Origin: a virus
Strand: one strand, 5' to 3'
IMG/VR virus record: IMGVR_UViG_3300025782_000011
Coordinates: 2,214 to 66,213 of that record
Length of the DNA: 64,000 nt
Below the pieces are notes generated by a model. It was given only the letters and a program-made list of their open reading frames with translations, did no database searches and was not told where the DNA came from. Positions 1,023 through 59,491 of this stretch are shown in pieces (within the stretch, counting starts at the first letter, position 1; the number at the start of each line of letters is the position of its first letter). Position numbers and translations under genes: made by a program.

Positions 1023-1038
1023 GTTATATAATATCAAT

Positions 1039-1545: not shown

Positions 1546-1642
1546 GTGATAGGAAGATTTGCCTCCAACAGGGGCCCGTTACTTCCCGGGTCTACGATCT
1601 AGCGACTGAGTGAGGCTATAAACTCTAGATAGGAAAATTCAA

Positions 1643-2215: not shown

Positions 2216-2228
2216 TTAGGAGTAAACC

Positions 2229-2540: not shown

Positions 2541-2542
2541 TA

Positions 2543-3178: not shown

Positions 3179-3194
3179 TTTAAGAGAATAGCAC

Positions 3195-6479: not shown

Positions 6480-6486
6480 AAATATG

Positions 6487-6515
6487 TTGACAATTTTTAA
6501 TTTTTTAAATAAAAT
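6487..6515 (+). promoter_or_regulatory. sigma70-type promoter
   Basis: TTGACA-17 nt-TAAAAT upstream of the 6537 gene. Confidence 0.6.
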
Positions 6516-6536
6516 CGTAATTTAAAGGAAATATTT

Positions 6537-7301
6537 ATGGCACAATCAGGCTATACACCCATTGTACTTTACTACAGCACAACTTCTGGTAATGTTCCCA
6601 CATCGGCGAATTTAACCACAGGTGAACTCGCGCTTAATGTGCCCGATGGTAAACTATTTTTTAATCAATCTGGTACCATTGTAACACTCGCAACTGCAAA
6701 TAGTGTAACATCATTTAGTGCTGGAACAACAGGCTTAACACCAAGTTCAGCTACATCCGGAGCCATAACACTTGCAGGCACTTTGGCAATTGCCAATGGA
6801 GGAACAGGCGCTACTACTTTAGCAGGCGCTAATATTGCTGTAACATCTGCTGCAAGCACATTTACTGCTACACAAACATTTAGTGGTTCTACAAGCGTTC
6901 TTGCACAAGTAGTGACAAATGCCGCCGAAGTAACAACAGTATCAGCAACCGCTGCTACAGGCACAATTAACTACGACATATCAACACAATCAGTGTTGTA
7001 CTACACAACATCAGCATCAGCAAACTGGACAGTAAACTTTAGATTCAGTTCAGGCACATCATTAAATACTGCAATGTCTACAGGTCAATCAGTGACTGTT
7101 GTGTTTTTAGTATCGCAAGGCGCTACAGCTTACTACAACAATGCAATTACGATTGATGGCAATTCAGTCACACCTAAATATCAAGGTGGTACAGCATGGT
7201 CAAGTGGTAACGCATCAGGTGTTGATGCTTACTCATACACCATTGTTAAAACAGGTTCAGCCGCATTTACAGTATTTGCGTCACAAACACAATTCAAATA
7301 G
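6537..7301 (+). CDS. tail fibre / receptor-binding accessory protein
   Basis: N-terminal VPTSANLTTGELALNVPDGKLFF typical of fibre N-termini, GGTG repeat. Confidence 0.65.
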   Translation: MAQSGYTPIVLYYSTTSGNVPTSANLTTGELALNVPDGKLFFNQSGTIVTLATANSVTSFSAGTTGLTPSSATSGAITLAGTLAIANGGTGATTLAGANIAVTSAASTFTATQTFSGSTSVLAQVVTNAAEVTTVSATAATGTINYDISTQSVLYYTTSASANWTVNFRFSSGTSLNTAMSTGQSVTVVFLVSQGATAYYNNAITIDGNSVTPKYQGGTAWSSGNASGVDAYSYTIVKTGSAAFTVFASQTQFK

Positions 7302-7310
7302 GAATAGTTA

Positions 7311-10300
7311 ATGTCATTACTATCACGATTAGCGGTAGAAGCATCTAGAGCTTATGGATTCTTATCGTCTAACAAAAATAATGTATCTGCAAACTTTTTA
7401 GTTGTAGCTGGCGGTGGCGGTGGCGGTTCAGGCTATGATGCTGGCGGTGGTGGTGCTGGTGGGTATCAAACTTCATCTACAACATTATCCACACTTGTTA
7501 CATATACAGTTACAGTTGGTAGTGGTGGCGCAGCAGTATCAAATACAACAGGTGCAAATGGTTCAAATTCAGTTATATCAGGCACAGGATTAACAACAGT
7601 TACTTCCATAGGAGGCGGTGGTGGAGGAGGTTCTACTACAGGATCAACAGGAATTGGCTCTAATGGTGGTTCAGGCGGAGGCGGTGGATTTACAACTAGC
7701 GGAGCAGGCCTTGCAGGTGGAACAGGGACAAGTGGTCAAGGTAACAATGGTGGTCAAGGATTTACTACAGTAAGTGTTAGTGCTGCTGGTGGTGGTGGAG
7801 GTGGTGCTAGTGCTGTAGGAGCAAATGCAACATCTTCAGCTGCAGGTAACGGAGGAGCAGGCTCTTCTTCATCTATTAGTGGCTCATCCGTAACATACGC
7901 TGGTGGTGGTGGCGGTGGCGCTGATACTAGAGGAACAACTGCTGGAACAGGTGGTTCTGGCGGTGGAGGAAATGGTTCAACAGCAACAGGTGTAGCAGGA
8001 ACAACAAATCTTGGCGGTGGTGGCGGTGGTGGTGGCTATAATGGAGCAGCTAATAGTGGTGGTGCAGGCGGTTCAGGCATAGTCATCATATCTTACGCAT
8101 CTGCTACACCTAAATTCGTAGGTGGCACTCTTACTACTTCAGGTGGTAACCAAATTCACACATTCACATCTTCAGGCACATTAAGCCCTCTTACACCTGT
8201 AACAGCTAGTTATTTAGTCGTAGCTGGTGGTGGTGGTGGTGGATTTAATCAGGCTGGCGGTGGAGGTGCTGGTGGTCTTTTAACATCATCTACAACTTTA
8301 TATTCAGGTGCTACTTATGTAGTAACTGTAGGTGCAGGTGGAACAGGCGGAACAAGTGCAGGTGTTTCTGGTTCTGCTGGAGGAAATTCAGTTATATCAG
8401 GCACAGGTCTAACTACGCTTACTTCAACAGGTGGCGGTGGTGGAGGCGCATATAATACAGCTGCTACATCTGGTGGTTCAGGAGGTGGCGGTGGTGGTGG
8501 TAATAGCAACAATACAGGTGGTTCAGGAACTAGCGGTCAAGGATATGCAGGTGCAACATCAACAAATAATCAATCAGGTGGTGGTGGTGGTGCAGGTGGC
8601 GCAGGAGCTATAGGTGTAAGTTTGTCTGGAGGTGCTGGAGGAACAGGAGTAGCATCTTCAATAACTGGAGTATCTGTAAACTATGCAGGTGGAGGTGGTG
8701 GTGGTAATGCACAAAATTCAGGCTCTGGTGGAACTGCTACTTATGGTGGTGGTAACGGAGGAACTAATGCTAATGGAGTTTCAGGCACAACTAATTTAGG
8801 TGGTGGTGGTGGTGGTGGCGGTAATAATGCTTCTGTTGGTTTTGCTGGTGGCTCAGGCGGATCAGGTATTGTTATCATCTCATACGCTGGCTCACAAGTA
8901 TTTAACGGTGGTCTAGTCACATCATCAGGTGGTAATACTATCCACACATTTACAGCTACAGGTGCTTTAACACCACTTACTAATAACCTAAACAATTCTT
9001 TAAGGTTTAGATTAAGTGCATCTGCATATTTAAATAGAACTCCATCTCAAGCATCTAACAGAACTACTTATACTTGGAGTGCATGGGTTAAACGAGGTTC
9101 TTTAGGTAATTATTTTACTTTATTTGGTGCAGGAACAACAGCACCTACTTATGATGTTATTCGTTTTAATTCATCAGATCAATTAGAGTTTTTTACTGCA
9201 GGTGCAGCATCTGTTGATGTAGTTACATCTCAAGTATTTCGTGATCCTTCAGCTTGGTATCATATAGTTGTTGCTGTTGATACTACACAAGCAACTGCAG
9301 CTAATCGTGTTATGTTTTACATTAATGGTAATCAAGTAACTTCATTTGCCGCAGCAACTTATCCAACACAAAATTCTGTAAATTCAATTAATAATACAGT
9401 TCCTCATGCTGTAGGTGCTACTGCTGTTAATTCTACATTTAATACATATTTTGATGGATACATGGCTGACATTAACTTCATTGATGGCCAAGCCTTAGCA
9501 CCATATTACTTCGGTAACAATGACGCTAATCAAGTATGGAAACCAATTAAATACACAGGCACATACGGAACTAACGGTTTCTACTTAACATTTGGTAACA
9601 CAATATCTACCACAACATTAGGCTACGATAGTTCACCTAACGGTAATAATTGGACAACTAACAACATTAGCTTAACAGCAGGCACAACTTATGATGCTAT
9701 GACTGATGTTCCTACGCTAACAAGTGCGACTGTGGGTAATTACTGCACACTTAATCCTTTAGATAAATATTCAACTGTAACTACTTTAGCCGCTAATTTA
9801 CAATCAACAAGTGGAACTGCGTCAACTTGGACTGCTATTGCTGGATCATTTGCTGTGTCTAGTGGCAAATGGTATTGGGAATATACTGTTAATGCAACAG
9901 GAGTAGCAGATTATATGAATGGCATTATTTCCACTTCAGATAATATTTCTAATGCTTTGTTTCCTGGTCAAACATCTACATCTTATGGATATTATAGTGT
10001 TAATGGTCAAAAATATAACAATAACACAGGAACGTCTTATGGTGCAACTTATCAAACTGCTGGTGATATTGTTGGTGTTGCATTAGATTTAGATGGAGGA
10101 ACACTAACATTTTATAAAAATGGCACAAGTCAAGGAACTGCATTTACAGGAATATCAGGAACATTTAAACCAGCGTATTCATCTACTGCAACATCCACAG
10201 TAAATATTATTAACTTTGGACAAAGACCATTTTCTTACACACCTCCTACAGGCTATGTAGCACTAAACACATATAACCTACCTACCCCTACTATATTACA

Positions 10301-11309
10301 GGGTAATAAGTATATGGATGCAACGCTATATACAGGTAATGGCTCTACACAATCTATTACTAATACCGCAGGATTTAAACCTGATTTAGTATGGGTAAAA
10401 TCAAGAAGTGCAGCTACAGATCATAAATTAACTGACTCTGTTAGAGGTGTTACAAAAGCACTTATATCTGATACTACAGGTGCAGAAACAACAGATACCA
10501 ATGGTTTAACAGCATTTAATAGCAATGGTTGGTCATTAGGAACAGACACTAATTATAATAACAATACTGCCACTTATGTAGGCTGGCAATGGCAAGCTGG
10601 ACAAGGTTCAACATCATCTAATACTTCAGGCTCTATTACATCTACTGTATCTGTAAACACAACTGCTGGGTTTAGTGTAGTGACTTATACAGGAACAGGT
10701 GCTAATGCTACAGTAGGACATGGGCTTGGTGTTGCGCCAAGCATGATATTCTTTAAACAAAGAAGTGGTGGAACTGCAAGAGCTTGGCAAGTTTATCATG
10801 TGTCTATGGGCAATGGTGGTGGTATGTATTTAAACCAAACTAATGCTTATACAGCAGACTCTACAGCATTTAATAATACATCTCCTACATCATCTGTATT
10901 TTCTTTAGGTTCTAGTGTATATCCAAATCAAAGTGCTAGTCCTATAGTAGCCTATTGCTGGGCAGCTATTCCAGGCTTCTCCGCTTTTGGAAGTTACACA
11001 GCAAATGCTTCTACTGATGGTCCATTTATATATTGTGGATTTAGACCAAAATATATATTAATTAAAGGAAGTGTTGCTGGTAATAATTGGGTAGTATTAG
11101 ACACTTCTAGAAGTCCTTACAATGTTGCTAATTTATATTTACTTCCTAATTCTACAAATGTAGAAGGTAGTGGAGGTGATTTAATTGATATTGTAAGCAA
11201 TGGATTTAAAATTAGAGATTCTGGTAGTGATGTAAACTATTCATCAGGAGCAACATACATTTACGCAGCATTTGCAGAAAATCCTACAAAAATTTCTAAT
11301 GCAAGGTGA
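7311..11309 (+). CDS. large glycine-rich tail protein with LamG/ConA-like and SPRY-like domains
   Basis: Two VVAGGGGGG glycine-rich modules, TWSAWVKR...WYHIVVAVD (LamG-like), GKWYWE...GVALDLDGGTLTFYKNG (SPRY-like), and C-terminal PDLVWVKSR/GHGLG repeats. Confidence 0.75.
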   Translation: MSLLSRLAVEASRAYGFLSSNKNNVSANFLVVAGGGGGGSGYDAGGGGAGGYQTSSTTLSTLVTYTVTVGSGGAAVSNTTGANGSNSVISGTGLTTVTSIGGGGGGGSTTGSTGIGSNGGSGGGGGFTTSGAGLAGGTGTSGQGNNGGQGFTTVSVSAAGGGGGGASAVGANATSSAAGNGGAGSSSSISGSSVTYAGGGGGGADTRGTTAGTGGSGGGGNGSTATGVAGTTNLGGGGGGGGYNGAANSGGAGGSGIVIISYASATPKFVGGTLTTSGGNQIHTFTSSGTLSPLTPVTASYLVVAGGGGGGFNQAGGGGAGGLLTSSTTLYSGATYVVTVGAGGTGGTSAGVSGSAGGNSVISGTGLTTLTSTGGGGGGAYNTAATSGGSGGGGGGGNSNNTGGSGTSGQGYAGATSTNNQSGGGGGAGGAGAIGVSLSGGAGGTGVASSITGVSVNYAGGGGGGNAQNSGSGGTATYGGGNGGTNANGVSGTTNLGGGGGGGGNNASVGFAGGSGGSGIVIISYAGSQVFNGGLVTSSGGNTIHTFTATGALTPLTNNLNNSLRFRLSASAYLNRTPSQASNRTTYTWSAWVKRGSLGNYFTLFGAGTTAPTYDVIRFNSSDQLEFFTAGAASVDVVTSQVFRDPSAWYHIVVAVDTTQATAANRVMFYINGNQVTSFAAATYPTQNSVNSINNTVPHAVGATAVNSTFNTYFDGYMADINFIDGQALAPYYFGNNDANQVWKPIKYTGTYGTNGFYLTFGNTISTTTLGYDSSPNGNNWTTNNISLTAGTTYDAMTDVPTLTSATVGNYCTLNPLDKYSTVTTLAANLQSTSGTASTWTAIAGSFAVSSGKWYWEYTVNATGVADYMNGIISTSDNISNALFPGQTSTSYGYYSVNGQKYNNNTGTSYGATYQTAGDIVGVALDLDGGTLTFYKNGTSQGTAFTGISGTFKPAYSSTATSTVNIINFGQRPFSYTPPTGYVALNTYNLPTPTILQGNKYMDATLYTGNGSTQSITNTAGFKPDLVWVKSRSAATDHKLTDSVRGVTKALISDTTGAETTDTNGLTAFNSNGWSLGTDTNYNNNTATYVGWQWQAGQGSTSSNTSGSITSTVSVNTTAGFSVVTYTGTGANATVGHGLGVAPSMIFFKQRSGGTARAWQVYHVSMGNGGGMYLNQTNAYTADSTAFNNTSPTSSVFSLGSSVYPNQSASPIVAYCWAAIPGFSAFGSYTANASTDGPFIYCGFRPKYILIKGSVAGNNWVVLDTSRSPYNVANLYLLPNSTNVEGSGGDLIDIVSNGFKIRDSGSDVNYSSGATYIYAAFAENPTKISNAR

Positions 11310-47313: not shown

Positions 47314-47479
47314 TTATATTTACCTTTTAAATTGCGCATTTTGTCATATATTCTCTTATTTTTGTCAGACGTACGCTTTTTTATATGTCTGCCATTAAAC
47401 AGGAGTCTACCACACAATTTTCTAATTTGGTACACAATCATTTTGCATTTGCCTATTTTTTAATCAGATGTTAAGCCAA

Positions 47480-47707
47480 AAAGACACAGAAGACATAGAA
47501 GACAGGGTACGTGTTTTGTCGCTTTTTGGATAGTTTTCCAATTTCTCATTTTCCAAGTGATTGATTAATAACATCTTATTTTTTACCGAGCCATAGAAGA
47601 CACAGAAGACACCCTTTATTCCAGTTTTTTAGTTTTTTTAATAAAATAAAAAATAAAAGATACGGATAAAGTGCGTTTATACTGTGTCTTCTATGTCTTC
47701 TGTGTCT
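47480..47707. repeat. iteron-like element A, putative replication origin
   Basis: Three clusters of tandem 9-mers AGAAGACAY (two direct, one inverted) around an AT tract. Confidence 0.75.
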
Positions 47708-47812
47708 CCAAATTCATTATAGTAACATTCAATGTAGGGGAATATGATCCTACAAGCAAAATATACCGACAAAATGATGACATACCATTTAGCGACCTGC
47801 CACCATGTCTTT

Positions 47813-48065: not shown

Positions 48066-48812
48066 TTAATTGCTCACTATTGAACCACTGAACGTATACG
48101 TGCCAGTGTGTGTTAAAGATACCCAAGGTGCTGCCCAAACTTTATAGCCATGCTTCCTTGCCAATTTACAGAAGTGATAATCTTCTGATAGTAGTTTATT
48201 ATCATCAGGATCAATCGATGTGTCAAAGAATTGATGAATGATCTTTGGTTTGCGTTCTGTATCAATCGCAGCGTACATATCTGATGTGTATGTCGGTACA
48301 TGCTTCATCAGTCCTTCAAATACTTTACGCTTGATTAACATGTAGCCCGTACCACCGCTTACGATTTCTAATGGTTCGTTAATTTTACCTGTTGCTGATT
48401 TGTTATCAACTAACAACACAACAAATTCGCCTGTGTGTTTGTGCAAGTCTGCAAAAGGTACACCATCCTTGACTGCCTTCTCAACTTTGATCCAGTTAAT
48501 CTCTTTCTTTGGATACAAACCGCACACAATGTCTTTGTCTGCTGAAATCATATCAGGAATATGTTTTGGATCGAATCCAATATCTGCGTCGATGAATAAT
48601 AAGTGTGAGCAGTCGCTCTTGATAAAGTCGTGCGCTAAACTATCACGCGCTCTTGTAATGAGTGATTCGTTCATCATGAATGAATAATGCATCTTGATAC
48701 CTTGCGTCATCATCATGTGAACCAGATTGGCTAAACCAATAGCATGCGTGCCAGTACACATACCACCATACATGGGCGTTGCTACAAATATCTTGGCGTC
48801 TTGCGGTTTCAT
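48066..48812 (-). CDS. GT-A fold glycosyltransferase-like protein
   Basis: VATPMYGG, ESLITRARD, LFIDADI, LSEDYHFC. Confidence 0.75.
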   Translation of the reverse strand: MKPQDAKIFVATPMYGGMCTGTHAIGLANLVHMMMTQGIKMHYSFMMNESLITRARDSLAHDFIKSDCSHLLFIDADIGFDPKHIPDMISADKDIVCGLYPKKEINWIKVEKAVKDGVPFADLHKHTGEFVVLLVDNKSATGKINEPLEIVSGGTGYMLIKRKVFEGLMKHVPTYTSDMYAAIDTERKPKIIHQFFDTSIDPDDNKLLSEDYHFCKLARKHGYKVWAAPWVSLTHTGTYTFSGSIVSN

Positions 48813-49405
48813 ATTTTTCTTACTCCTAGTTGATAATTATTAATAATGATTTCATACTGCTTTGCAAATACTTTTAAGAAGGCATCGACGCCAATCTTTG
48901 GTTGGTTTAATTCGCCTGGGATGTCAGTCCAAAGGTAATCATCAAACAACATGATACCGCCTTTGTTTAATAATGGCCATGCCATGCATGCATCGGTGAG
49001 TGTATCGTAGCCAGTATGTGATCCATCGATGTAGATAAAATCAAACTTGGCATCTTGTTTAATAAGATCTGTTAATCCATGGTATGACATCTTTGGTATG
49101 GCTATGTATTTTTGACCTACACCAATCACTTCAGACACATTACCTACGAATGTTTGATAGAGGTGAGTTAGATTCATATGCTCATGTTCTACACTGCCTT
49201 CAAATGTATCGATGCAGGTGATGCTCGAACCATATGGTTCTAATCCATTTTGAATGAGCCACGTTGTAGCTCTACCTTCAAAACATCCTATCTCCAAAAA
49301 TCTTGTTTTATTGTTTAATGTTTTCATGCAAAGTTCCATGTTTGGAATATTGAATGAAAACCAGTCTGTTGTAAAATTCATTTTGTTGTCCTTAATTGAG
49401 TCCAT
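48809..49405 (-). CDS. class I SAM-dependent methyltransferase, Methyltransf_24 type
   Basis: LEIGCFEG, CIDTFEG, FDFIYIDGSH, FDDY. Confidence 0.85.
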   Translation of the reverse strand: MDSIKDNKMNFTTDWFSFNIPNMELCMKTLNNKTRFLEIGCFEGRATTWLIQNGLEPYGSSITCIDTFEGSVEHEHMNLTHLYQTFVGNVSEVIGVGQKYIAIPKMSYHGLTDLIKQDAKFDFIYIDGSHTGYDTLTDACMAWPLLNKGGIMLFDDYLWTDIPGELNQPKIGVDAFLKVFAKQYEIIINNYQLGVRKI

Positions 49406-50082
49406 GGATAATTACCATTATACCTATCCAATGTCACTTTGTTATTTTTTGTGATAACTTTAAGTAACCTATCACGCATTCTATAATTGACAGAATATTC
49501 ACCATTGCATTCATAGTCTGGTAAATTGGTTGCGATACCTTCAAAGAAATCTCTATCTGCATAATATGAATTCGTATAGAAGTGATGTGCGAATCGTGCT
49601 AAGTATTTACGCTTGAAGCAATAGCAATTGGTATCGACATATCTTTTAGCAACAGAATCCACCGGTGGCCATTTGCCCAGGCTATCACAATTATCATCTG
49701 CAATATAATTACCATCGGTGTCTACAATTTTACGAAGGCTATAACACCAAGTAAGATCGTGTTCTTTGATAAAGTTGATCATCTTTTCTACATGGTCAGG
49801 TTCAAACCAATTATCTTCATCCAAAAATAATATGTAGTCTGCATTGGATAGAAGCGGCATCGTTGCATATATTCTGTGACCATTCCACCCATTGGCTCCG
49901 GTGTTCTCAGGCAACATGACCATCTTTGCATTTGGATAAAGTTTAAGTTCTGCATTGAATCCACCATCTGCCACAATGATGTGTTCTGTTTTGATTGTTT
50001 GGTTGTAGACACTATCAATGGCTTGTTGTAAATACTGAGTGCCAATCGTAGGTGTGATGACTTGTATTCTTGGATTATTCAT
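49378..50082 (-). CDS. glycosyltransferase family 2
   Basis: VITPT...AIDSVYNQT...IVADG...FLDEDNW. Confidence 0.8.
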   Translation of the reverse strand: MNNPRIQVITPTIGTQYLQQAIDSVYNQTIKTEHIIVADGGFNAELKLYPNAKMVMLPENTGANGWNGHRIYATMPLLSNADYILFLDEDNWFEPDHVEKMINFIKEHDLTWCYSLRKIVDTDGNYIADDNCDSLGKWPPVDSVAKRYVDTNCYCFKRKYLARFAHHFYTNSYYADRDFFEGIATNLPDYECNGEYSVNYRMRDRLLKVITKNNKVTLDRYNGNYPWTQLRTTK

Positions 50083-50647
50083 CGTGATCTTCCACTGTGT
50101 TTGTTTCATTGATACTATCCAATGACACAGGCTCATAGGTTAAATAGTTTTGGAGTTGTCTTACTTTATCGACTTCAACACCCATCATCGTAGCTATCTC
50201 GTTAAGCTTTGGTTTGCGACCAAGTACTTGTGAGAGTGCTCGCTCGTTGTAATTCATTTTCTTGATCGCTTCCATAATGTTTACTGGCATGCGTATCACA
50301 TTGGCAGTGTTGTCCATGTCTCGTCTAACTCCTTTTAATATAAATGATCTAGCATAGGTTGCGAACCTTGCATTATTTTTTGGTACCCATCTTTTGGCAG
50401 CAATCACTAAATGTTCGTTACCCATGCTAATAAGATCCTCAACAGGCATCTTGCCATAAGTCCATGCCGTTGTACTTCTTAAAATATAAACCACGAAACG
50501 TAGATTATGCTTAACAAGTTTATCTAATGCTGCCTTGTTGCCTTTCTGAATCTGTTCAGATAATTTGTGTTCTTCTTCGGTGGGTAGTGGCTCTATGCCA
50601 AATAGGGATTGTAGGTAATCGGTTAGTAAGTCTGTTGGTTCACTCAA
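50075..50647 (-). CDS. sigma70-family factor lacking region 4
   Basis: Region 1.2 (YLQSL...PLPTEEE), region 2 (LVKHNLRFVV...DLISMGN...RFATYA), region 3 (IRMP...LGRKP...EIA...PVSLD), then stop. Confidence 0.85.
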   Translation of the reverse strand: MSEPTDLLTDYLQSLFGIEPLPTEEEHKLSEQIQKGNKAALDKLVKHNLRFVVYILRSTTAWTYGKMPVEDLISMGNEHLVIAAKRWVPKNNARFATYARSFILKGVRRDMDNTANVIRMPVNIMEAIKKMNYNERALSQVLGRKPKLNEIATMMGVEVDKVRQLQNYLTYEPVSLDSINETNTVEDHDE

Positions 50648-51408: not shown

Positions 51409-51548
51409 TTAAATACTCCAAAATATAAAAAGATTAATGAAACAATAATGATGGCAATCCAAATAGGTATATCTATTGGATCATGGTCATGATGATTGAC
51501 ATCATAATCAAAGTGGAAGTCATCATACTCTTTGGCTTTTTTTCTCAT
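51405..51548 (-). CDS. small membrane protein, 47 aa, not in ORF track
   Basis: MRKKAKEYDD...IPIWIAIIIVSLIFLYFGVFK, with ATGA overlaps on both sides. Confidence 0.55.
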   Translation of the reverse strand: MRKKAKEYDDFHFDYDVNHHDHDPIDIPIWIAIIIVSLIFLYFGVFK

Positions 51549-51691
51549 GGCATCACCTTAAATAAATGGTGCATGAAAATTGCCATTGCTACAGTGAATC
51601 CAATTACAAAAGATGCTGATGTGTATAAGATCATATCAGTTCTATGTTTTCGCTTTAATTGTTCACGCGTTAAGTATGTATCTGGAATCAT
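51545..51691 (-). CDS. small membrane protein, 48 aa, not in ORF track
   Basis: MIPDTYLTREQLKRKHRTDMILYTSASFVIGFTVAMAIFMHHLFKVMP, with ATGA overlaps. Confidence 0.55.
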   Translation of the reverse strand: MIPDTYLTREQLKRKHRTDMILYTSASFVIGFTVAMAIFMHHLFKVMP

Positions 51692-52017
51692 TCTGCATCT
51701 CCTTCAAAAGTTAATGGCATTGCATCGGTTGCTAAGACATGCAAAACATGCTCAACAGCGATAGGTTTAAATCCACCGATATGCCAATCATGGTTTTTAA
51801 TTGGATCGATGTCTATTTTGTAATCATAAATTGTAGCGACTGTGCCATCATCAAACTCGATAGCCCATTCTGCCCTGGTCTTATCACCATCACCTTCGTA
51901 TGGCTTACCGAATGATCTTACGATCTGATCGTATGGACAATCTACGCGACCACGATATGATGTGCCCGCGATGTTTATATTTTGTTGCTTGTGTGTAATA
52001 AAGTCTAATTGTTGCAT
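51688..52017 (-). CDS. conserved phage early protein
   Basis: GTSYRG...FGKP...DKTRAEW...ATIYDYK...WHIGG, RBS AAGGAG before ATG 52017. Confidence 0.65.
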   Translation of the reverse strand: MQQLDFITHKQQNINIAGTSYRGRVDCPYDQIVRSFGKPYEGDGDKTRAEWAIEFDDGTVATIYDYKIDIDPIKNHDWHIGGFKPIAVEHVLHVLATDAMPLTFEGDAE

Positions 52018-52054
52018 GTGTTTCTCCTTTGTGGTAGTTAAGTGTTGCTTCTGT

Positions 52055-52083
52055 ATTGTCTTCCTATTTATTACAGATGTCAA
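52055..52083 (-). promoter_or_regulatory. sigma70-type early promoter
   Basis: Minus strand TTGACA-17 nt-GACAAT upstream of ATG 52017. Confidence 0.6.
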
Positions 52084-52094
52084 TTAAAATTTAT

Positions 52095-52257
52095 CCAAGT
52101 GACATTGGGTTCTAAAAAAGCCCAAGTGACATTCGTATTTATCCAAGTGACATTGAGATTGAGTGCAGCCCAAGTGACATTCGTATTTATCCAAGTGACA
52201 TTGGGTTTTCCGTTTATCCAAGTGACATTGGGGTTTCTCTTTTATCCAAGTGACATT
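52095..52257. repeat. array of seven CCAAGTGACATT 12-mers
   Basis: Copies at 52095, 52122, 52143, 52170, 52191, 52218, 52246. Confidence 0.92.
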
Positions 52258-52697
52258 GACATATAACCACAATCGCATTATGGTTATTAATAACCACAAT
52301 GGCAAAAGGGTTAATGAATGAGAATGATTATCATTATCACAATGCCCCTCGAATTTTAGAAAATGCCCCGATCGCCCCGAAATCATGGCTCGAGCCCTAA
52401 AATGCTTAAAAAATAGAGTGCAATTCATCGCACAATCGCTCTATACGCGATTCTTTTTATCTATCCTATACTTACCCCCTTTCAAAAAATGATCGTGATT
52501 CAATGGCTTTAAAAAGCCCCTTTTTAATATATGGCTCTCACAATCGCATTTTAAGCGATTATTTTTTGGCACTTGATGTCATATCATTAAGCCAAATATC
52601 GCCTTGCTCAATGGTTATAAAATGCCCCTCAAAATCGATTCAATTCGATCGAATCGATCGCTGATTTAATACTTATTTAATCGCTCGAATAGCATCC

Positions 52698-52725
52698 AAA
52701 AAAAAGCCCCGAATAGATCGGGGCT
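52698..52725 (-). terminator. intrinsic terminator after the peptidase gene
   Basis: A8-GCCCCGA-ataga-TCGGGGCT on the plus strand, giving hairpin plus T tract on the minus strand. Confidence 0.8.
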
Positions 52726-52751
52726 CGAATGATTAAATAAAAATTAAATCT

Positions 52752-53888
52752 TCACCCCGAATAAGAGCCCTCAAGCTCATCATTCTCAAGATCGAGTGAA
52801 AGCTCTGATTGAATTGGTGCTTTTAGAAGAGAGGGGCGATCGCAATCATCATTAAAAGAATGATAATCAGCATAATCATCTGAATAATATTGATCTCGAG
52901 CGATCATCGCATCTTCGAGCTCAAATACATGGTTTAAAAGATCGCTCATCATGTCAGCAATTTTCTCGGGCTTATTCTTTTTTATGAATTGAGCCAATTC
53001 TTTTCGATCAAGGTACATAATCTCATCGAGCTCGGGGTTATCGTATATTGAGCTAAAAGAATCATATTGAGAGCCATAATAAGAGCCATAAGAAAAGCCC
53101 TCATAATCATCATATTTTGGCTCACGATCGATTGGCAATTCAAGAGAGCCCCATTCAATCGAGGTGATCTTATCTTTTAATTTCATAAGATAATCAAGAT
53201 CGAGTATTTCACGCGATGAATGCTCGTGATCGTACCCGATCGAGAAATTAAAGCACTCGGGTATTAATCCAAAGTATTCTCTCGTGTCAGTATAAGTACC
53301 CGTATCATCGAGCTCGTGATTCATACCGAAAAGATCAATGATGAATTGAGCACATTTATCCGATGCCCCTCGATTCATGCCTTGATGTGTGATAACCGAT
53401 CTCGCACCTCTTCGATCGAAAGCGATCGCATGGGTGAAAGTTTTGAGCCAATCAGCATAAATAGAGCTCATCGCCCGAGAGCCAATGCCCCCTTTCTCTT
53501 CGCCCCGATGAAATAAAAAGCACCCGTGCACATCTCGCTCGATCATCTCGAGCAATAAATAAACCCCAGCCCCATCATCAGCACCGAGGCAATCATCGCT
53601 CGAATTGATAAATACTTGATTGGTGAGAGAATCCACGAATACTTCTTGAAATACTCGCTCGGGCTCTTTTCGGTGCATCGTGTCAATATGGCAAGAGAAA
53701 AGCACTCGAGAGCGATCTTCGGGGTGAGTGTTATCGAATCGATAAGCGATCACCTCATTATTAAGATCATACAATGGCTCACAATGGCTCAAGAATTTAA
53801 GAGCGAATGAGAGCTCACCCGTAGAATTGTGCTCTCTTCTATGAGAGAGAATTGATAAGAGCTTATCCATGAATTGCCTCGCTTTCAT
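52752..53888 (-). CDS. M28/M20-type zinc peptidase-like protein
   Basis: CHIDTMH, LGADDGAG, RGEEKG, AFDRRG, GYDHEH metal-ligand motifs. Confidence 0.8.
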   Translation of the reverse strand: MKARQFMDKLLSILSHRREHNSTGELSFALKFLSHCEPLYDLNNEVIAYRFDNTHPEDRSRVLFSCHIDTMHRKEPERVFQEVFVDSLTNQVFINSSDDCLGADDGAGVYLLLEMIERDVHGCFLFHRGEEKGGIGSRAMSSIYADWLKTFTHAIAFDRRGARSVITHQGMNRGASDKCAQFIIDLFGMNHELDDTGTYTDTREYFGLIPECFNFSIGYDHEHSSREILDLDYLMKLKDKITSIEWGSLELPIDREPKYDDYEGFSYGSYYGSQYDSFSSIYDNPELDEIMYLDRKELAQFIKKNKPEKIADMMSDLLNHVFELEDAMIARDQYYSDDYADYHSFNDDCDRPSLLKAPIQSELSLDLENDELEGSYSG

Positions 53889-55764
53889 TAAGTTTAAATT
53901 TTATTAAATCGGGATTAAATTCAAATCCCATATAATCATTTTCAAGATCATCGGTGAGAATCGCGTACTCATTGGCGATCAACCCGAAACTTGTGAGTGT
54001 CATCGCATCTCTCGGATAGAATTTACCCGAATAAACACAAGGGCGAAGATCAAAGCCCTTAATTGATAAATAGTGATCGAATAATAAATTGGCATCATTG
54101 AGCACATTTTTAATATCATTCGCGAACCATTCACAATAGGGATAGATCACCCCTTGCACCTTATCGGTAAAAGAATTTAATCGATCGATCATTTGATTAT
54201 ATTGATCCTGATGCACCACATCACCACAAGGCAAATAACGGGCATCAAGATAATGAATATACATTTGATCGATTATGAGGCTTCGAGATAAATCTCTATA
54301 AGGCACAATCACCTCGAGCACATCTTCTCTCAAATAAAATACATTTGAGCGTACTTCGATTAATTCATTTTTGAAATAATAATCACAAGAATTTTCATCT
54401 TGAGCGATGCCATATTGATCGAGCGAATCTTGATGATAATACTCATCATCGCTCTGACAATAGATCACATCATCTTGATGAAAGACACTTCGATCATCGC
54501 CATCGCCATCATAAGCCCAAATATAATATTCATTCTCGCAACCCTCGCAAATTCTCAATCCAATCGAATCATAATAGCTCGTTTCATCTTCGGGGTGATA
54601 ATCACCACAAGATTCACAATAAACATCATCGCTTTCATCTTCACGATCTCGCCCATTGGTATAGTGTAAATAATAATCACCATTCTCATGGATTCTAAAA
54701 TAGAGCTTATTATCTATTCTTTCGAGATTGGCTTTTTGAGAGCCATTGTTGCCTCGATCAATATAAGGGGCTTTATAACCCCCCTCATCATGCTCAAAAG
54801 TTTTGATTAAGCACCCGTTAAGATTGCCCCATGAATACCCTTGATCGTGTAAAAGAGAAGATAACCATTTACCCCTGGAATCAGAATCGCTCGGGGGGTA
54901 AATTCGCACATATTCTTTTTTATCTTCTCGCACAATTGATCGAGCGATTACATTATCATCATCATCGCGAAGCACAGCCAATCTCAAAACACTCAAGGGG
55001 TGAGCATAATACTTCACCGAATCACAATCGCTCATACATGAGCTCACATTCGATTCATCTTGATAAGCATCAAGCCAATCTTGAGGGCTATCGGATTCGA
55101 TAAAATGTAATCGCCAATTATTCTGAGCTTGTAAGATCGCATTGTAAGAATCAACATAATTTTTGATCTTCGATTCATCGATGCCAATTTCATTTTTTAC
55201 ATTGGATAAGAATTTACCAAATCTCAATTTTACTTCTCGCCCTCTTCTCATATGATCGAGTGAGGGATAATAAGCCACGAGAGAGGGCTCACTTATCGAG
55301 AAGTGAAGTTGATAGATCATGTTATATCGATCAAATTTTGGTAAGTGATCGCCCGAGATAACCTTGCTTATCGTGCGAAGATCGATCGATTGCCATTCGG
55401 TGCTCATCATCTCTCGAGCTTTTATGAATGAGGGCTCGAATTGCCTCGCTTGAATTGTGCTCATTTGCATAATGAGCCATAAATACTCGTAAGCATTTTC
55501 AATATCTTTCGGATTCTTTCGCACCGATGCGATCGCCTTTGATAATCGATGCCCCCTTAATTTTCGATCGATTACATGAGAGGGGCTCTCAATCGAATAA
55601 TCGCGAAAAGGTGATCGCAAGTGATTCGAGATAAAAGCTCTTATGCTATCCTGAAGAGCCATTTTTTGAGTGAGTGCATCTTCGAGAGAATAAAAAGCTC
55701 GAGTGAGCTCTGATATTCTCGCGAGAGGTGCGAGAGCTTGTGGTGATGAAATAGCTAGATTCAT
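53863..55764 (-). CDS. large early protein with Zn-ribbon motifs
   Basis: 633 aa, SSCMS, ARSIV...RIY, CESC...CEGC, RBS AAGG. Confidence 0.65.
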   Translation of the reverse strand: MNLAISSPQALAPLARISELTRAFYSLEDALTQKMALQDSIRAFISNHLRSPFRDYSIESPSHVIDRKLRGHRLSKAIASVRKNPKDIENAYEYLWLIMQMSTIQARQFEPSFIKAREMMSTEWQSIDLRTISKVISGDHLPKFDRYNMIYQLHFSISEPSLVAYYPSLDHMRRGREVKLRFGKFLSNVKNEIGIDESKIKNYVDSYNAILQAQNNWRLHFIESDSPQDWLDAYQDESNVSSCMSDCDSVKYYAHPLSVLRLAVLRDDDDNVIARSIVREDKKEYVRIYPPSDSDSRGKWLSSLLHDQGYSWGNLNGCLIKTFEHDEGGYKAPYIDRGNNGSQKANLERIDNKLYFRIHENGDYYLHYTNGRDREDESDDVYCESCGDYHPEDETSYYDSIGLRICEGCENEYYIWAYDGDGDDRSVFHQDDVIYCQSDDEYYHQDSLDQYGIAQDENSCDYYFKNELIEVRSNVFYLREDVLEVIVPYRDLSRSLIIDQMYIHYLDARYLPCGDVVHQDQYNQMIDRLNSFTDKVQGVIYPYCEWFANDIKNVLNDANLLFDHYLSIKGFDLRPCVYSGKFYPRDAMTLTSFGLIANEYAILTDDLENDYMGFEFNPDLIKFKLNESEAIHG

Positions 55765-55950
55765 ATCGTACCTTTCTTATTAATATATACATGAGCGAAA
55801 GTGCTCACCCCCGATTATATGCGATCTAAAAAATAAAAGATCATTATTATTGGATTCTTTTTGATTTTGATTTCAAATCGGGTGCTCACCTCTGATAAGT
55901 TTTGATTATCATGGTCACTCGCCCCCCGAGCTTTCGCGTACGCGTATTCT

Positions 55951-56236
55951 CGCCCCCTCGATGCCTCGCCCCCTCGATGCCTCGCCCCCTCGATGCCTCT
56001 CACCCTTATTGGCTCGATCGCGATGCACTCACCCTCATTGGCATCATGCCTCGATGCCTTGCTGATTGCCCCGATCACCCTCGCTCACATCATGCCTCGA
56101 TGCCTCAATGCCTCGCGATCGAGCGAAGCATTGAGCTTCGATGCGATGCGATCGAGCGAAGCATTGAGCTTCGCAATCAATCAGGCATAGTGCATCATGC
56201 CTCGCAATCATAGCAATAGATTGCGAGGCATGATGC
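55951..56236. repeat. short-repeat region near the putative genome end
   Basis: 3x CGCCCCCTCGATGCCT (55951-55998), 2x 26-mer (56115, 56148), and a perfect 18-bp inverted repeat (56192-56209 / 56219-56236). Confidence 0.85.
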
Positions 56237-56497
56237 CTTAAAACCCTTGCTAGACTAGCGAATCAAATAACCCTCCTTGCTGTAGGGGTATTTCGATCGA
56301 GGCGATACCCCAATTTGGGTCCCCTACCTGAGGGGGGCGGCGGGGGCCCCACAAAAAGCAAGTTTTTATAATTTGCCGTATTTTTAAAAAAAGTCGATTT
56401 CTAAAAATTTTTTTTTAAAAAATCTGGACATTTTCTATATGAATCAAATACTTATGATAATTAACAGGACAAATAAATGTATAATATACTATACATA

Positions 56498-56716
56498 AAA
56501 GACATAGAAGACATAGAAGACACAGTATAAACACAGTTTGTCTCTATCTTTTATTTTTTATTTTTTAAAAATAATAAAAATATGGAATAAAGGGTGTCTT
56601 CTGTGTCTTCTGTGTCTTTTAGAAAAATATTATTAATTAAATCAATGGGTTAAAAAATTAGTGTTGCAAAAAAACAACAAAAACCGTACCCTGTCTTCTG
56701 TGTCTTCTATGTCTTT
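56498..56716. repeat. iteron-like element B, inverted copy of element A
   Basis: Same three AGAAGACAY clusters with the same flanks (CAGTATAAAC, CCCTTTATTCCA, GGGTACG) in reverse-complement order. Confidence 0.75.
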
Positions 56717-56798
56717 TTTAATACTTTGGTTTAATCTAAATCTGTAAGTCATTGATTTAATTATATGTAAAAATAATAGGTAGGAAATAGTTAAAATT

Positions 56799-56866
56799 TG
56801 CATTAGTATACTTACCTTGGATTCATGGAAATCCGTAGCCATATGTTTATAAAACTCGCATTAGTA
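56799..56866 (+). promoter_or_regulatory. two (T/C)GCATTAGTA elements upstream of pqqA
   Basis: TGCATTAGTA at 56799 and CGCATTAGTA at 56857, neither with a clean GGGCG. Confidence 0.5.
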
Positions 56867-56910
56867 AACATGTACACAATGACGTGTACTTATTTTTAGG
56901 AGATTTAAAC

Positions 56911-56982
56911 ATGTGGACTAAACCAGCAGCTACTGAAATGCGTTTTGGCTTTGAAGTAACAATGTACGTAATGAATAAGTAA
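56911..56982 (+). CDS. pqqA: PQQ precursor peptide, 23 aa, not in ORF track
   Basis: MWTKPAATEMRFGFEVTMYVMNK with the ExxxY motif, RBS AGGAG, own terminator. Confidence 0.95.
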   Translation: MWTKPAATEMRFGFEVTMYVMNK

Positions 56983-57012
56983 TCAAAAAGTTGCATTTAA
57001 TGTAACTTTCTG

Positions 57013-57041
57013 GAAGGGGCTTAAAACGTCCCTTCTTTTTT
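57013..57041 (+). terminator. intrinsic terminator after pqqA
   Basis: GAAGGGGC-ttaaaac-GTCCCTTC-TTTTTT. Confidence 0.75.
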
Positions 57042-57065
57042 ATACAAACTTAGGATTAAGTTTAG

Positions 57066-58058
57066 ATGGCAATAACAGCAATCCAACAAGTGCTAACACT
57101 TGACTATTGGAAAAGAGCAGACAAAGTAAAGATTGGCGATTATGTTTTTAACAAGGACGGCGAGATTGTCCAAGTTAAACTCGTCCAGCATTATTATGCC
57201 AATGAATGTTATGAAGTGACTTTTGATGACCATCTCACTATTCGTGGAGATAAACATCTAGGATTTTTAATCCAAGATAGAAATCATCGAAAGCAATTAG
57301 ATGCTTATAAAAACATCAGGCCATTTAAACGACAGTTGAAGTTTACTAAATTGGAAAACTTAATCGATCTGTCATTGAAAGATAAAAGAGGTCGCACTAA
57401 GTATTCAATACCTACGACGAAACCCATAGCGTTTCCTCATCAGGAATTAAGCATACCACCTTTTGTGTTTGGTTATTGGCTTTATAACAAAAACAAAAAA
57501 CATCAGATGGTCACAATCCCAGGCTACCAAGATTTCATTTATGAAAAGTTTAGAAGCCATGGATACAAAATTATAGAAGGGCCAAAAAGAAAAAACGGCA
57601 AACGCGTATTTATAACAGAGCCAGCTATTCATTTACAATTGGCTCCGAATATACCAAGCAGATTACCTACAAATTATTTGTTTGCATCTGTAGAAGAACG
57701 CATCGAATTATTGACTGGCATCATGCATGCTAAGTCAGCGCAATATGAAAAAAGAAATGACAGGTTTAGATTCTCATCTAGGAATTTAAATGTTGTGGTG
57801 CAGATTCAAAGTTTAGTTGAATCGTTAGGCTCAAAGACATCCATTCTGTTTAACCCAGCTCGAAATACATACACATTGTATTTTAAGTTTAGGATTAAGA
57901 TTATGGATATCCAAAAGTCTCCACCCATCAAAGTGTATCCAAGTAGAAGATACATTAAAGCCATTGAACCCACACAATCCCAAATGTGTGTTCATATAGA
58001 AACAAACGGACCAGACAACTCAATCCTTGTTGGAGAAGGATTTATACAGACATGTTAA
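57066..58058 (+). CDS. free-standing intein-like protein (Hint plus degenerate LAGLIDADG)
   Basis: Hint N-part VLTLDYWKRADKVKIGDYVFNKDG...CYEVTFDD, middle IPPFVFGYWL...YLFASVEERIELLTGIM, Hint C-part RRYIKAIEP...ILVGEGFIQTC-stop. Confidence 0.75.
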   Translation: MAITAIQQVLTLDYWKRADKVKIGDYVFNKDGEIVQVKLVQHYYANECYEVTFDDHLTIRGDKHLGFLIQDRNHRKQLDAYKNIRPFKRQLKFTKLENLIDLSLKDKRGRTKYSIPTTKPIAFPHQELSIPPFVFGYWLYNKNKKHQMVTIPGYQDFIYEKFRSHGYKIIEGPKRKNGKRVFITEPAIHLQLAPNIPSRLPTNYLFASVEERIELLTGIMHAKSAQYEKRNDRFRFSSRNLNVVVQIQSLVESLGSKTSILFNPARNTYTLYFKFRIKIMDIQKSPPIKVYPSRRYIKAIEPTQSQMCVHIETNGPDNSILVGEGFIQTC

Positions 58059-59491
58059 CAGACAAACAAGAAGCCATACTAAAGAAGTTTGCAGAAACTC
58101 ATAAGCACTGGCCAAAGCAGCAACTTGATGCTGCATTGTGGCAAGTCAAGTGGGCGCTTCAAGCACTCCCTCATCAACGCGAACCAGAAGATGGCGAGTT
58201 TGATACCTTCCTTATGTTAGCAGGACGGGGATCAGGAAAGACTCACACAGCCTCTCACTGGATCGGCATCCGTGCGTGGAAATATAACAACACTCGCTGG
58301 TTAGTCACAGCACCAACCTCAAACGATATTCGTGCAACATGTTTTGAAGGTGACTCTGGTCTGCTCAATATTATACCATCATCTTTAATCAAAGACTACA
58401 ACAAATCATTATTTGAAATTACTTTAACCAATGGATCATTGATCCAAGGTATCCCTGGTTCAGAACCAGAACGTTATCGTGGTAAGCAATTTCATGGCGC
58501 ATGGTTTGACGAGTTGTGTGCGTTTGAGTATTTAGATGACGCATACGATGGTGTTCAGTTTACGCTTCGTCTTAAAGATCCAAGAATCCCTCGCGTTCAG
58601 CAGATCATTACCACAACACCAAAACCAAAAGAACTGATCGTTGACTTAAACGAAGGTAAAGTTGGTGGTGATGTGTATGTCGTCAACGCATCATCATACG
58701 ATAACAAACAACACTTATCCGAAACCTTCTTCAAACAGTTAGAAACATACGATGGCACAGACATCGGTCGTCAAGAGATCTATGGTGAGATCCTAGATCC
58801 TGAACAAGCTGGTATTATCAAACGTAAGCAGTTTAGATTATGGCCTGCAAATAAGCCAACACCTAACTTGGAATATGTAATTGCCAGTTACGATCCGGCA
58901 ACATCTGAAAAAACAATGAACGACCCAACGGCATGTACGATATGGGGTGTGTTTGAACAAGAAGATGCAGGCACATCTATAATCTTACTCGATGCTTGGG
59001 ACGGACACTTAGCTTATCCAGAACTTCGTCGCAAAGTCATTGATGACTTCAAAGAAGTTGTCTATGGAGCTGATAACGATTTCGGAAAAGGAAGAAAAGC
59101 CGATCTCGTATTGATGGAAGATAAGTCAGCTGGTATCTCACTCATTCAAGAACTACAAGGTTCAGGCATTGAGGTGCGAGGTTACAATCCCGGTCGTGCT
59201 GATAAAGTTCAGCGTCTTAATATTGTAGCACCTATCATAGCGAAGGGCAAGGTTTATATTCCAGAAGATCCTGAACGACCTGGCGAATATGCAGACTGGG
59301 CAAAACGTTTCTTGCGCCAAGTGTGTTCATTCCCAGAAGCGGGCGGTCATGATGACTATGTAGATTCTTTATCACAAGCGCTACGTGTATTGCGTGACTC
59401 AGGATGGATTCAATTAGATCCATTACCTGCGCGTGATTATTCGTACGCAGATGACCGATCCAAACGATTTGAAAATCCGTATGCGATGTAG
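58052..59491 (+). CDS. terL: terminase large subunit
   Basis: Walker A AGRGSGKT, Walker B WFDE, ITTTP, nuclease YDPA...HDDYVDSLSQ. Start 58052 is coupled to the upstream stop. Confidence 0.92.
   Translation: MLTDKQEAILKKFAETHKHWPKQQLDAALWQVKWALQALPHQREPEDGEFDTFLMLAGRGSGKTHTASHWIGIRAWKYNNTRWLVTAPTSNDIRATCFEGDSGLLNIIPSSLIKDYNKSLFEITLTNGSLIQGIPGSEPERYRGKQFHGAWFDELCAFEYLDDAYDGVQFTLRLKDPRIPRVQQIITTTPKPKELIVDLNEGKVGGDVYVVNASSYDNKQHLSETFFKQLETYDGTDIGRQEIYGEILDPEQAGIIKRKQFRLWPANKPTPNLEYVIASYDPATSEKTMNDPTACTIWGVFEQEDAGTSIILLDAWDGHLAYPELRRKVIDDFKEVVYGADNDFGKGRKADLVLMEDKSAGISLIQELQGSGIEVRGYNPGRADKVQRLNIVAPIIAKGKVYIPEDPERPGEYADWAKRFLRQVCSFPEAGGHDDYVDSLSQALRVLRDSGWIQLDPLPARDYSYADDRSKRFENPYAM

Follow-up and report, generated by a model that had tools for sequence, protein, structure and literature searches.

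We analysed a 64,000-nt stretch of viral DNA (the window; positions 2,214 to 66,213 of IMG/VR record IMGVR_UViG_3300025782_000011), in which an early operon of two genes lies within a 4-kb island of DNA whose short-word vocabulary differs from that of the surrounding phage. The genome consists of one 66,213-bp contig, the ends of which overlap by 637 bp at 97% and close it like a circle. Structural and packaging genes occupy the plus strand up to 32.8 kb and from 57.07 kb on, among them the gene of the large terminase subunit TerL (57986–59491, Terminase_6 type), with the portal gene next to it. The minus-strand genes from 56.1 down to 32.8 kb are early genes, encoding a sigma factor, methyl- and glycosyltransferases, a D5-type primase-helicase and an SNF2 helicase. 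This leftward early set begins with the island, which is situated directly upstream of the packaging genes. The features of the island and its edges are the following:

52313–56348, no strand: compositional island, defined as a 3-mer segment and by k-mer counts against controls; equal on the two strands and seen in every codon phase as well as in the non-coding flanks on either side
53863–55764, minus strand: 633-amino-acid (aa) acidic protein, first operon gene; helical N-terminus, borderline GNAT-like domain (about residues 212–314) and beta-rich region with a CxxC Zn ribbon
52752–53888, minus strand: 378-aa M28-like metallopeptidase, second operon gene; its start overlaps the end of the 633-aa gene
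52704–52726, minus strand: strong intrinsic terminator closing the two-gene operon; 9-bp stem with 6 G-C pairs, then a T run
56230–56434, no strand: conserved non-coding region at the outer island edge; 78–97% identity in nine relatives, similarity ending at 56434
56333–56350, no strand: G-rich 18-mer at the island boundary; occurs once in the genome and is identical in the loci of eight relatives
55952–56236, no strand: repeat-rich 5' leader; direct repeats built on TCGATGCC/ATGCCTCG (families D5, D6) and an 18-bp perfect inverted repeat (pair I16)
52080–52258, no strand: CCAAGTGACATT repeat array (families D2, D4), just outside the inner island edge, where the 3-mer score is negative

The content of the operon, including its terminator, is as described in the first-pass annotation, which had been made from the sequence alone. 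The 633-aa protein matches no family in Pfam or PHROGs; a representative library contains 1916 relatives at E ≤ 0.001. C383, C386 and C409 are invariant and C406 nearly so. Its AlphaFold2 model (mean confidence, pLDDT, 82.3; built on 80 sequences) suggests a GNAT-like fold in the central domain, an assignment that is borderline: the best comparison reached Z 8.0 (root-mean-square deviation 3.0, 90 residues aligned, residues 216–339), where Z values of 7–8 are typical without a clear match, and Foldseek gave E ~1e-2 for this part. A C-terminal insert of about 90 aa (about residues 540–630, window 53863–54150), modelled with low confidence, is absent in most relatives. Residues 538–633 match a separate region in two related contigs, L001 and L037, where the counterpart of the insert lies downstream of a gene of about 550 aa, in L001 as a 105-aa open reading frame (ORF). 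Therefore, the window gene appears to be a fusion, or else the gene has been split in the relatives. The 378-aa protein matches Peptidase_M28 (PF04389, E 5.3e-7, 30 bits against a cut-off of 21.3), covering profile positions 11–125 of 193; PHROGs returned peptidase families only (phrog_4191 'peptidase', E 2.1e-62), and the protein had no sequence match in PDB.

The conserved region at 56230–56434, which retains its identity although the neighbouring Zn-ribbon gene is only about 68% identical at the DNA level in the same nine relatives, is presumably the promoter and leader of the operon. Inspection of the minus strand of 55765–56434 revealed no convincing consensus promoter. Chi-like oriented octamers were considered, and oriented repeats of this kind are found in the leader only, between 55958 and 56224. 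The G-rich 18-mer carries one mismatch in contig L036, contig L031 begins inside it, and the more distant clades have no counterpart of it. It contains GGGCGGCG, which we take to be the start of the lambda cohesive end; a cos site at this position is a lead only, and both the TerL, which is not of the lambda type, and the distant clades that have no counterpart speak against it.

Vocabulary of the island

The limits of the island, 52313–56348, are those of the maximal-scoring segment under a 3-mer log-likelihood model, whose score switches sign within about 100 bp at either edge; as the model was trained on coordinates taken from the first-pass annotation, only the sharpness of the edges is an independent result. 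All other parts of the window, including the adjacent intergenic DNA at 56400–57000, score negative for the island 3-mers. The words that the annotation had counted by hand were recounted, and all of its counts held. In 52300–56310 (4011 bp), GATC occurs 58 times, versus 14.5 expected from base composition and 16.8 from the density of the rest of the window, and TCGA occurs 69 times (14.5 and 7.7 expected, respectively). CGATCG is present in 16 copies (0.6 expected), versus four in the remaining 60 kb, and GAGCTC and CTCGAG in seven copies each (0.6 expected for each). GAC and GTC together occur nine times (3 and 6, versus 49.6 and 48.3 expected), and GGCC, CCGG, GCGC, ACGT, GCAG and CTGC are all absent, versus 55, 37, 109, 166, 240 and 214 copies in the rest of the window. 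The Asp codons of the two island genes are GAT in 103 cases and GAC in three.

The computed k-mer bias placed the island far outside the control pieces. Ten of the 136 canonical 4-mers are missing from it (mean 0.3 and maximum 5 in 200 random pieces of the same size), and it contains 993 distinct canonical 6-mers (mean 1464 and minimum 1220 in 97 control pieces). The tetranucleotide distance in 2-kb windows reaches 0.29–0.34 over 52001–56500, with a window-wide mean of 0.154 and a standard deviation of 0.050. These results confirm that the island is real and that its bias is very strong. The enriched trimers are CGA/TCG (4.8-fold), CCC/GGG (3.6-fold) and CTC/GAG (3.3-fold), and the depleted ones GAC/GTC (0.13-fold), CAG/CTG (0.18-fold), AAC/GTT (0.19-fold) and GGA/TCC (0.25-fold); among dinucleotides, AC/GT falls to 0.42-fold, CpG rises to 1.9-fold and AT to 1.39-fold. 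CpG observed/expected is 1.29 in the island versus 0.76 in the rest of the window, and G+C content 0.409 versus 0.387. The signature of the island is uncorrelated with that of the rest of the window (r = 0.00); a mirror image of the flank signature, which would give a negative correlation, was thereby ruled out.

Trimer counts on the coding strand are symmetric between complements (CGA 111 and TCG 86, GAC 4 and GTC 2, CAG 8 and CTG 8, CTC 81 and GAG 79), and the bias is seen in all three codon phases. The annotation had noted the shift in coding and non-coding DNA alike, and the densities are indeed equal in the genes and in the two non-coding flanks of the island (52313–52751 and 55765–56348): TCGA occurs at 16.6 per kb in the genes and at 17.7 and 20.1 per kb in the flanks, versus 1.9 elsewhere, and GAC/GTC at 2.0, 2.2 and 3.7 per kb, versus 17.3 elsewhere. 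Thus, the bias is a property of double-stranded DNA confined to the island and not of translation, and it is neither a codon preference nor a genome-wide mutation bias, given the negative scores of the neighbouring DNA; codon or translation bias was ruled out by the symmetry of the strands, the involvement of all codon phases and the similar flanks. The bias distorts the encoded proteins: the 633-aa protein contains 1.9% Thr and, compared with its relatives, has lost Thr 109 times and gained it 41 times. RNA or single-strand structure proved a weak candidate, with a mean z of -1.06 in the island versus -0.5 in two control regions by a crude shuffle.

A second, weaker compositional anomaly was observed at about 3000–10000, over large structural genes (ORFs 3195–6479, 6537–7301 and 7311–11309). 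There, the distance reaches 0.28, G+C rises to up to 0.50 and TCGA is nearly absent, a vocabulary different from that of the island. Two elements were recorded at the inner island edge, namely a rightward promoter-like sequence, TTGACA-17-TATGGT, at 52256–52284 and, downstream of it and just inside the edge, GAGAATGATTATCATTATC at 52318–52340, which resembles what we take to be the Fur-box consensus. Words of the GATAATCA type, similar to GAGAATGATTATCATTATC, recur within the island.

Constraint on the island and its relatives

The contigs L031–L033, which are 92% identical to the window, were compared with it codon by codon. The window and L033 differ by 82 synonymous single-base changes, which together lower the occurrences of 18 depleted trimers from 243 to 229. 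When identical base changes were placed at random synonymous sites, 300.0 ± 9.5 depleted trimers resulted, and none of 1000 trials was as low as the observed value; L032 and L031 behave like L033. The drift toward the composition of the recipient that is typical of donor DNA was not seen, as the synonymous differences keep the depleted trimers rare. This result excludes a passively carried donor signature and, taken with the strand symmetry and the non-coding bias, points to active maintenance of the vocabulary by selection acting on the DNA of the island.

The depleted words rather than the enriched ones appear to be the primary target. When the two island proteins were recoded with uniform codon choice and a penalty on the 18 depleted trimers, the recoded genes contained, per kb, 12.8 GATC, 14.7 TCGA and 65.7 CGA/TCG, versus 15.2, 16.5 and 65.3 observed. 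Trimer avoidance thus comes close to the observed numbers of the enriched words, so that depletion is the simpler candidate for the primary cause. Much of the excess of GATC, TCGA and CGA/TCG would arise because the depleted words are barred and the codon preferences of the phage are not followed, in proteins that are acidic and rich in Ser and Arg. Positive selection for GATC and TCGA as methylatable decoy sites, which the first-pass annotation had offered as an option, is therefore needless inside the genes, where most of the excess follows from avoiding other words; about half of the non-coding excess remains unexplained.

The relatives were studied in 30 viral and eight metagenome loci. 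The M28 gene follows the Zn-ribbon gene in all seven loci examined for gene order, and in four of the seven TerL and portal genes lie on the other side of the pair, including clades whose TerL is only 31–37% identical. The cassette appears to have diverged together with its phage, because the window and L001 share 90.6% protein identity in TerL, 82.9% in portal, 72.6% in the M28 protein and 52.8% in the Zn-ribbon protein (at the DNA level, TerL 80%, M28 77% and Zn-ribbon 68%). In L001 and L037, the score trained on the window is high precisely over the cassette; it is weaker there in L019 and L021, and six other loci show no such signal. When each of 13 more distant loci was scored by its own trimer profile, 12 had a peak at the gene. 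All 30 loci that have a flank, several of them near-duplicates, contain more CGA/TCG per length in the gene than outside it, and the CpG observed/expected of the island exceeds that of the flank in 11 of 11 loci.

The words themselves differ from lineage to lineage. GCGC, CGCG and ACGT occur 0, 6 and 0 times in the window island and 29, 38 and 9 times in that of L001; L001 and L037 are rich in GCGC (29 and 28) and CGCG (38 and 30), versus about 6 expected, and are not depleted of GAC/GTC, which occurs at 17.5 per kb in L001 and at 2 per kb in the window lineage. Signatures are similar between the window clade and the L019/L021 clade although their Zn-ribbon proteins are only about 30% identical. 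Hence, the island is conserved at the same place across lineages while its word sets turn over between them. Relatives had been predicted to show the same bias at the same position despite different gene content; the position was borne out, the gene content turned out to be the same, and the word sets differ. As a separate observation, the flanks of L019 and L021 (IMG/VR contigs) are almost devoid of GATC, TCGA, GGCC, CGCG, GCGC and CCGG, which makes their islands the clearest example of a block rich in words that are shunned by the genome around it.

These comparisons bear on the possibility that the island is a mobile cassette, its composition stemming from a foreign gene pool, either a donor replicon or a different host, from which it is re-imported repeatedly by recombination at conserved flanks. 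The edges are as sharp as those of inserted DNA, the signature resembles neither the remaining phage DNA (r = 0.00) nor that of the presumed host, phage groups unrelated to each other carry the gene pair, and the window and L019/L021 clades are alike in signature despite their divergent Zn-ribbon proteins. Acquired islands such as morons and genomic islands likewise have sharp edges and a signature that sets them apart from the genome around them; unlike these, the island is found at the same place in distant relatives, is maintained at synonymous sites and had no donor signature among the loci examined. The synteny is deep, the pair and its flanks have diverged to a similar degree, the synonymous differences among close relatives continue to keep the depleted words rare, and the word sets change between sister lineages. 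A match to the composition of a donor genome, which the annotation had regarded as fatal to its own reading, was not found: the island signature occurs in none of 30 phage flanks and none of 80 bacterial loci examined. We consider repeated import quite unlikely. A search of 50,697 phage records revealed no DNA similarity to the island, a single-protein scan of viral contigs found nothing, and the genome contig collection searched contained no relatives of the Zn-ribbon protein.

A regional mutation bias without selection, caused for instance by early exposure to a host DNA-modifying defence or by a special replication mode, was also considered. Many of the depleted words could decay by C-to-T change next to A, in agreement with the scarcity of AC and the rise of AT, and the pattern at synonymous sites alone cannot separate selection from context-dependent mutation. 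Such a process is nevertheless highly improbable in view of the higher G+C content of the island, the enrichment of CGA/TCG and CpG that C-to-T decay cannot produce, the unaffected adjacent non-coding DNA, and the barred sets that differ between sister lineages. The abrupt change of composition at both edges could also be that of an assembly chimera, with foreign DNA joined into the phage contig. This has a practically negligible probability, since the same junctions and gene order recur in the independently assembled L001/L038, L037 and L002, and 19 of 24 listed freshwater runs (six of the 24 being marked as possible sources) hold at least half of the sampled words of 51500–57500.

Presumed host and restriction enzymes

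The clue to the host is a stand-alone pqqA gene (56911–56982, plus strand), encoding a 23-aa PqqA identical to that of three Methylophilaceae genomes. Its DNA was matched in 359 of 361 genomes drawn as the family of one of these three, G001, at 87–97% identity among the matches listed. Being a host-derived auxiliary gene, pqqA offers the best indication of the host, which was assumed from it to belong to the Methylophilaceae. When 20 kb of phage DNA was compared with the 361 genomes in a search for spacers of clustered regularly interspaced short palindromic repeats (CRISPR), with two candidates scored per genome, all of the matches listed fell on pqqA and no spacer was recognised among them.

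The restriction enzymes MmeI (TCCRAC) and MmeII (GATC) derive from Methylophilus methylotrophus (PMC2582602); with its penultimate adenine conserved, the MmeI family is quick to change specificity (PMC2731913). The trimers that the island lacks most strongly are GAC, AAC and GGA/TCC, and TCCRAC does not occur in it (3.0 expected). The 22 MmeI-family sites in Table 1 of PMC2731913 occur nine times in the island versus 35.0 expected, with a minimum of 24 in 97 control pieces, and only 0.24% of matched random 6-mer sets were as depleted. This four-fold depletion is no more than suggestive of a role for restriction. Of 81 genomes sampled from the presumed host family, 13 encode an MmeI-type recognition domain. 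Among the 6-bp palindromes, 46 of 64 are absent from the island (control mean 35.7, maximum 51).

The depletion extends to GTA, GTC and GTT, and GTG is not depleted. These GTH trimers match what we take to be the protospacer adjacent motif (PAM) of type I-D CRISPR systems, GTH. Cas10d (TIGR03174) was found in none of 41 sampled family genomes and in none of the three with an identical PqqA, in a search whose positive control matched nowhere either. Host mimicry was ruled out for the Methylophilaceae, since the island correlates with 8-kb host loci at r = 0.12–0.46, versus 0.59–0.78 for the remaining phage DNA; the latter gives values of 0.5–0.7 with loci of other proteobacteria, too.

The barred words might instead be targets of an early nuclease of the phage itself, one that destroys host DNA while the island is the only phage DNA present. 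Such a model has been argued for the A1 protein of T5 (bioRxiv 10.1101/866236). Among the 4-bp palindromes, GCGC, absent from the island, shows the largest excess in presumed host DNA (2.88 observed/expected). However, the majority of the depleted trimers are scarce there as well (GAC 0.57, GGA 0.53, CTA 0.70), neither of the two island genes was recognised as encoding a nuclease, and elsewhere in the phage the barred words occur freely, so that this DNA would need separate protection. We regard avoidance of a self-encoded nuclease as very unlikely.

Proposed first entry and exposure of the early operon

The first-pass annotation had proposed that the island is a first-injected, restriction-evading leader. 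Phages with known entry order provide a measure for this proposal. In T5 (L042, NC_005859), the first-step-transfer DNA (1–10219) has a tetranucleotide distance of 0.14–0.16 versus a median of 0.088, with return to the baseline at about 10 kb. Its CpG observed/expected is 1.34 versus 0.75, GCGC occurs 53 times versus 7.8 expected, and its signature shows no correlation (r ~0) with the rest of T5. It resembles E. coli K-12 DNA (r = 0.66, 0.59 and 0.50 for k = 2, 3 and 4), whereas the rest of T5 gives r = -0.04 to 0.14. The window island is thus like the first-step-transfer DNA of T5 and BF23 in being an early-gene block of a few kb with an oligonucleotide signature unrelated to its own genome and with a repeat-rich non-coding zone at its inner border. 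It differs in that the T5 block is a proven 10-kb terminal repeat that enters first, whereas the window island is known from sequence only; in that the T5 block resembles host DNA and the window island does not; and in the much stronger bias of the window, with ten absent 4-mers versus none in T5 windows. No homologs of the T5 pre-early genes A1, A2 and dmp were found among the island genes with PHROGs and Pfam.

Published experiments indicate that first-entering DNA is where defence systems act. Restriction affects T5-like phages only through sites in the first-injected part, and CRISPR likewise acts on T5 only through the part that enters first (PMC10644984; 10.1101/866236). In the Autographiviridae (Murciavirus, T7), restriction selects sub-genomically on first-entering, early-gene DNA, and restriction of Murciavirus phages depends on motif sites in the first-injected DNA (PMC12455610). 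Homologs of both island genes are found in the early regions of Autographivirales phages. Unlike the window island, the effect in that family concerns single Type I motifs, with no overall change of vocabulary described; Cronobacter phage Peggy, the only such phage that was tested, has no island over its homologous pair. The leading regions of conjugative plasmids also enter first, carry anti-defence genes and are reported to be depleted in restriction targets (cited in PMC12455610), but they belong to another kind of element with another entry mechanism, single-stranded transfer.

Taken together, the results show a conserved early operon, apparently self-contained with a leader and terminator of its own, whose DNA is under continuing, lineage-specific selection against short words, above all GTH/DAC, CAG/CTG, GGA/TCC and CTA/TAG, and also GCGC, GGCC, CCGG and ACGT. 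We propose that exposure is the reason. If packaging were to begin at the island, which directly precedes the packaging genes, and to proceed through those of the terminase, as it does in lambda, the island would be the last DNA to enter the capsid and the first to leave it. The operon reads inward from the outer edge, which would fit first release. The first-released island would be exposed to host nucleases before any counter-defence of the phage exists, and restriction selection would thereby be concentrated on it, as in the first-step-transfer DNA of T5; the Methylophilaceae systems involved would include the fast-changing MmeI family. We infer that host nucleases are the selecting agent and that first exposure singles out this block. 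A first-injected, restriction-evading leader is plausible as a reading of the island; the full mechanism, with an early operon whose DNA is under host restriction selection because it is exposed first, we put forward tentatively, its probability being somewhat under one half.

A number of observations weigh against this proposal. The MmeI-family test was made after the depleted trimers were known. GATC, the word of MmeII, is enriched 3.9-fold in the island and TCGA 4.7-fold, while the presumed host DNA avoids both (0.47 each); the 6-bp palindromes as a class are not depleted (70 versus 55.1 expected). With GATC enriched, a simple purge of host restriction words is a poor fit. The trimer-level purge is broader than any single known restriction specificity, and the island correlates poorly with the Methylophilaceae loci, unlike the T5 block with E. 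coli DNA. In non-coding DNA, avoidance accounts for only about half of the enrichment, in a kilobase that also holds repeats. The islands of L019 and L021 contain 51 and 45 GATC, 31 and 26 TCGA, and 13 and 14 GGCC, in flanks nearly without these words. The terminal redundancy of SPO1 is only weakly distinct (0.08–0.11 versus a median of 0.077), and Peggy carries the homologous pair at 3453–6346, 3.4–6.3 kb from its left end, with no island; therefore, islands are not a general mark of early DNA, yet one is present in the one phage with proven two-step entry. As to packaging, the contig closes like a circle through its 637-bp overlap at 97%, and its TerL is of the Terminase_6 type, with weak relatives that include phages we take to be headful packagers. 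Headful packaging leaves no fixed leading end (PMC12455610), and if the window phage packages in this way the first-release argument fails. Apart from these points, the contig ends of the relatives revealed no consistent terminus. In two TerL relatives, Caulobacter phage RW and a Manatee Spring phage, the annotation next to the terminase genes includes neither a peptidase nor a large hypothetical gene.

The position of the island would also suit a physical role in cis, as a long terminal repeat or as a recombination or replication segment beside the packaging site that needs the absence of certain trimers, restriction being uninvolved. The sharp edges coincide with repeat arrays and with the conserved, unique G-rich 18-mer, the block adjoins the packaging genes, and the T5 island is also the terminal repeat of T5. 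One form of this role would be an absence of primase start sites on either strand, so that the end stays single-stranded for concatemer formation. GTC, GTT, CTG and CTA are among the most depleted trimers and are, in our understanding, the trinucleotides at which the primases of T7, T4, E. coli and S. aureus begin synthesis, a match made after the fact. Other sites that we likewise take for primase start sites (GCT, CCC) are enriched in the island, and the primase of the phage is of the D5/PriCT type, so that the match rests on other primases. Even close lineages have different word sets, as would be expected from an arms race more than from a constant mechanical requirement, and the SPO1 terminal redundancy is hardly an island. 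We judge a role in cis to be unlikely.

The surroundings of the island include further elements. Inverted copies of an element of about 240 bp, composed of 9-bp AGAAGACAY repeats, at 47471–47720 and 56488–56734, bracket the island and the next early operon; in related contigs, GTGACAA repeats replace the right-hand copy. Ahead of TerL, a 330-aa ORF (57066–58058, plus strand) contains an internal stretch matching only terminase-large-subunit and helicase-loader PHROG profiles. In the early region beside the island, 48066–50136 (minus strand) encodes a class I methyltransferase (Methyltransf_24) and two glycosyltransferase-like proteins, which may modify DNA or the cell surface and could bear on protection of the remaining genome.

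Returning to the proposed exposure of the early operon, the interpretation of the first-pass annotation is partly supported overall, on the strength of the DNA-level bias, the conserved island, the lack of a donor-like signature in the loci examined, the position by the packaging genes, the T5 island, the published restriction of first-injected DNA and the MmeI-family depletion. That restriction pressure concentrates on leading DNA is already known; the additional feature here is a whole private vocabulary that is kept at synonymous sites, conserved in place and re-tuned. The literature consulted, in the parts seen, offered no description of a whole-vocabulary island in the leading region of a phage, the T5 island not having been sought specifically. 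In its most extended form, the proposal holds that a family of freshwater Methylophilaceae phages might keep its first-exposed early operon in a private trimer-level vocabulary, re-tuned by lineage, as a specificity-independent evasion of fast-diversifying restriction enzymes (MmeI-like Type IIL, Type I) and possibly of CRISPR PAMs; in this form we regard it as doubtful.

Avoidance of restriction sites is usually measured genome-wide and is often weak, and recent experiments indicate that only first-entering DNA counts. If the proposal is true, the island would be the most extreme natural example of such avoidance, with about 30% fewer distinct 6-mers, trimers nearly removed, a protein with 1.9% Thr and lineage-specific words. 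Sharp k-mer islands would then mark staged genome entry from sequence alone, also in uncultured phages, and the list of barred words would be a readout of the defences encountered by a phage lineage. Should the link to entry order hold, the two island genes, which belong to a large uncharacterised family, would become candidates for the first counter-defence functions. Even if that link fails, a 4-kb private vocabulary kept by selection at synonymous sites demands an explanation.

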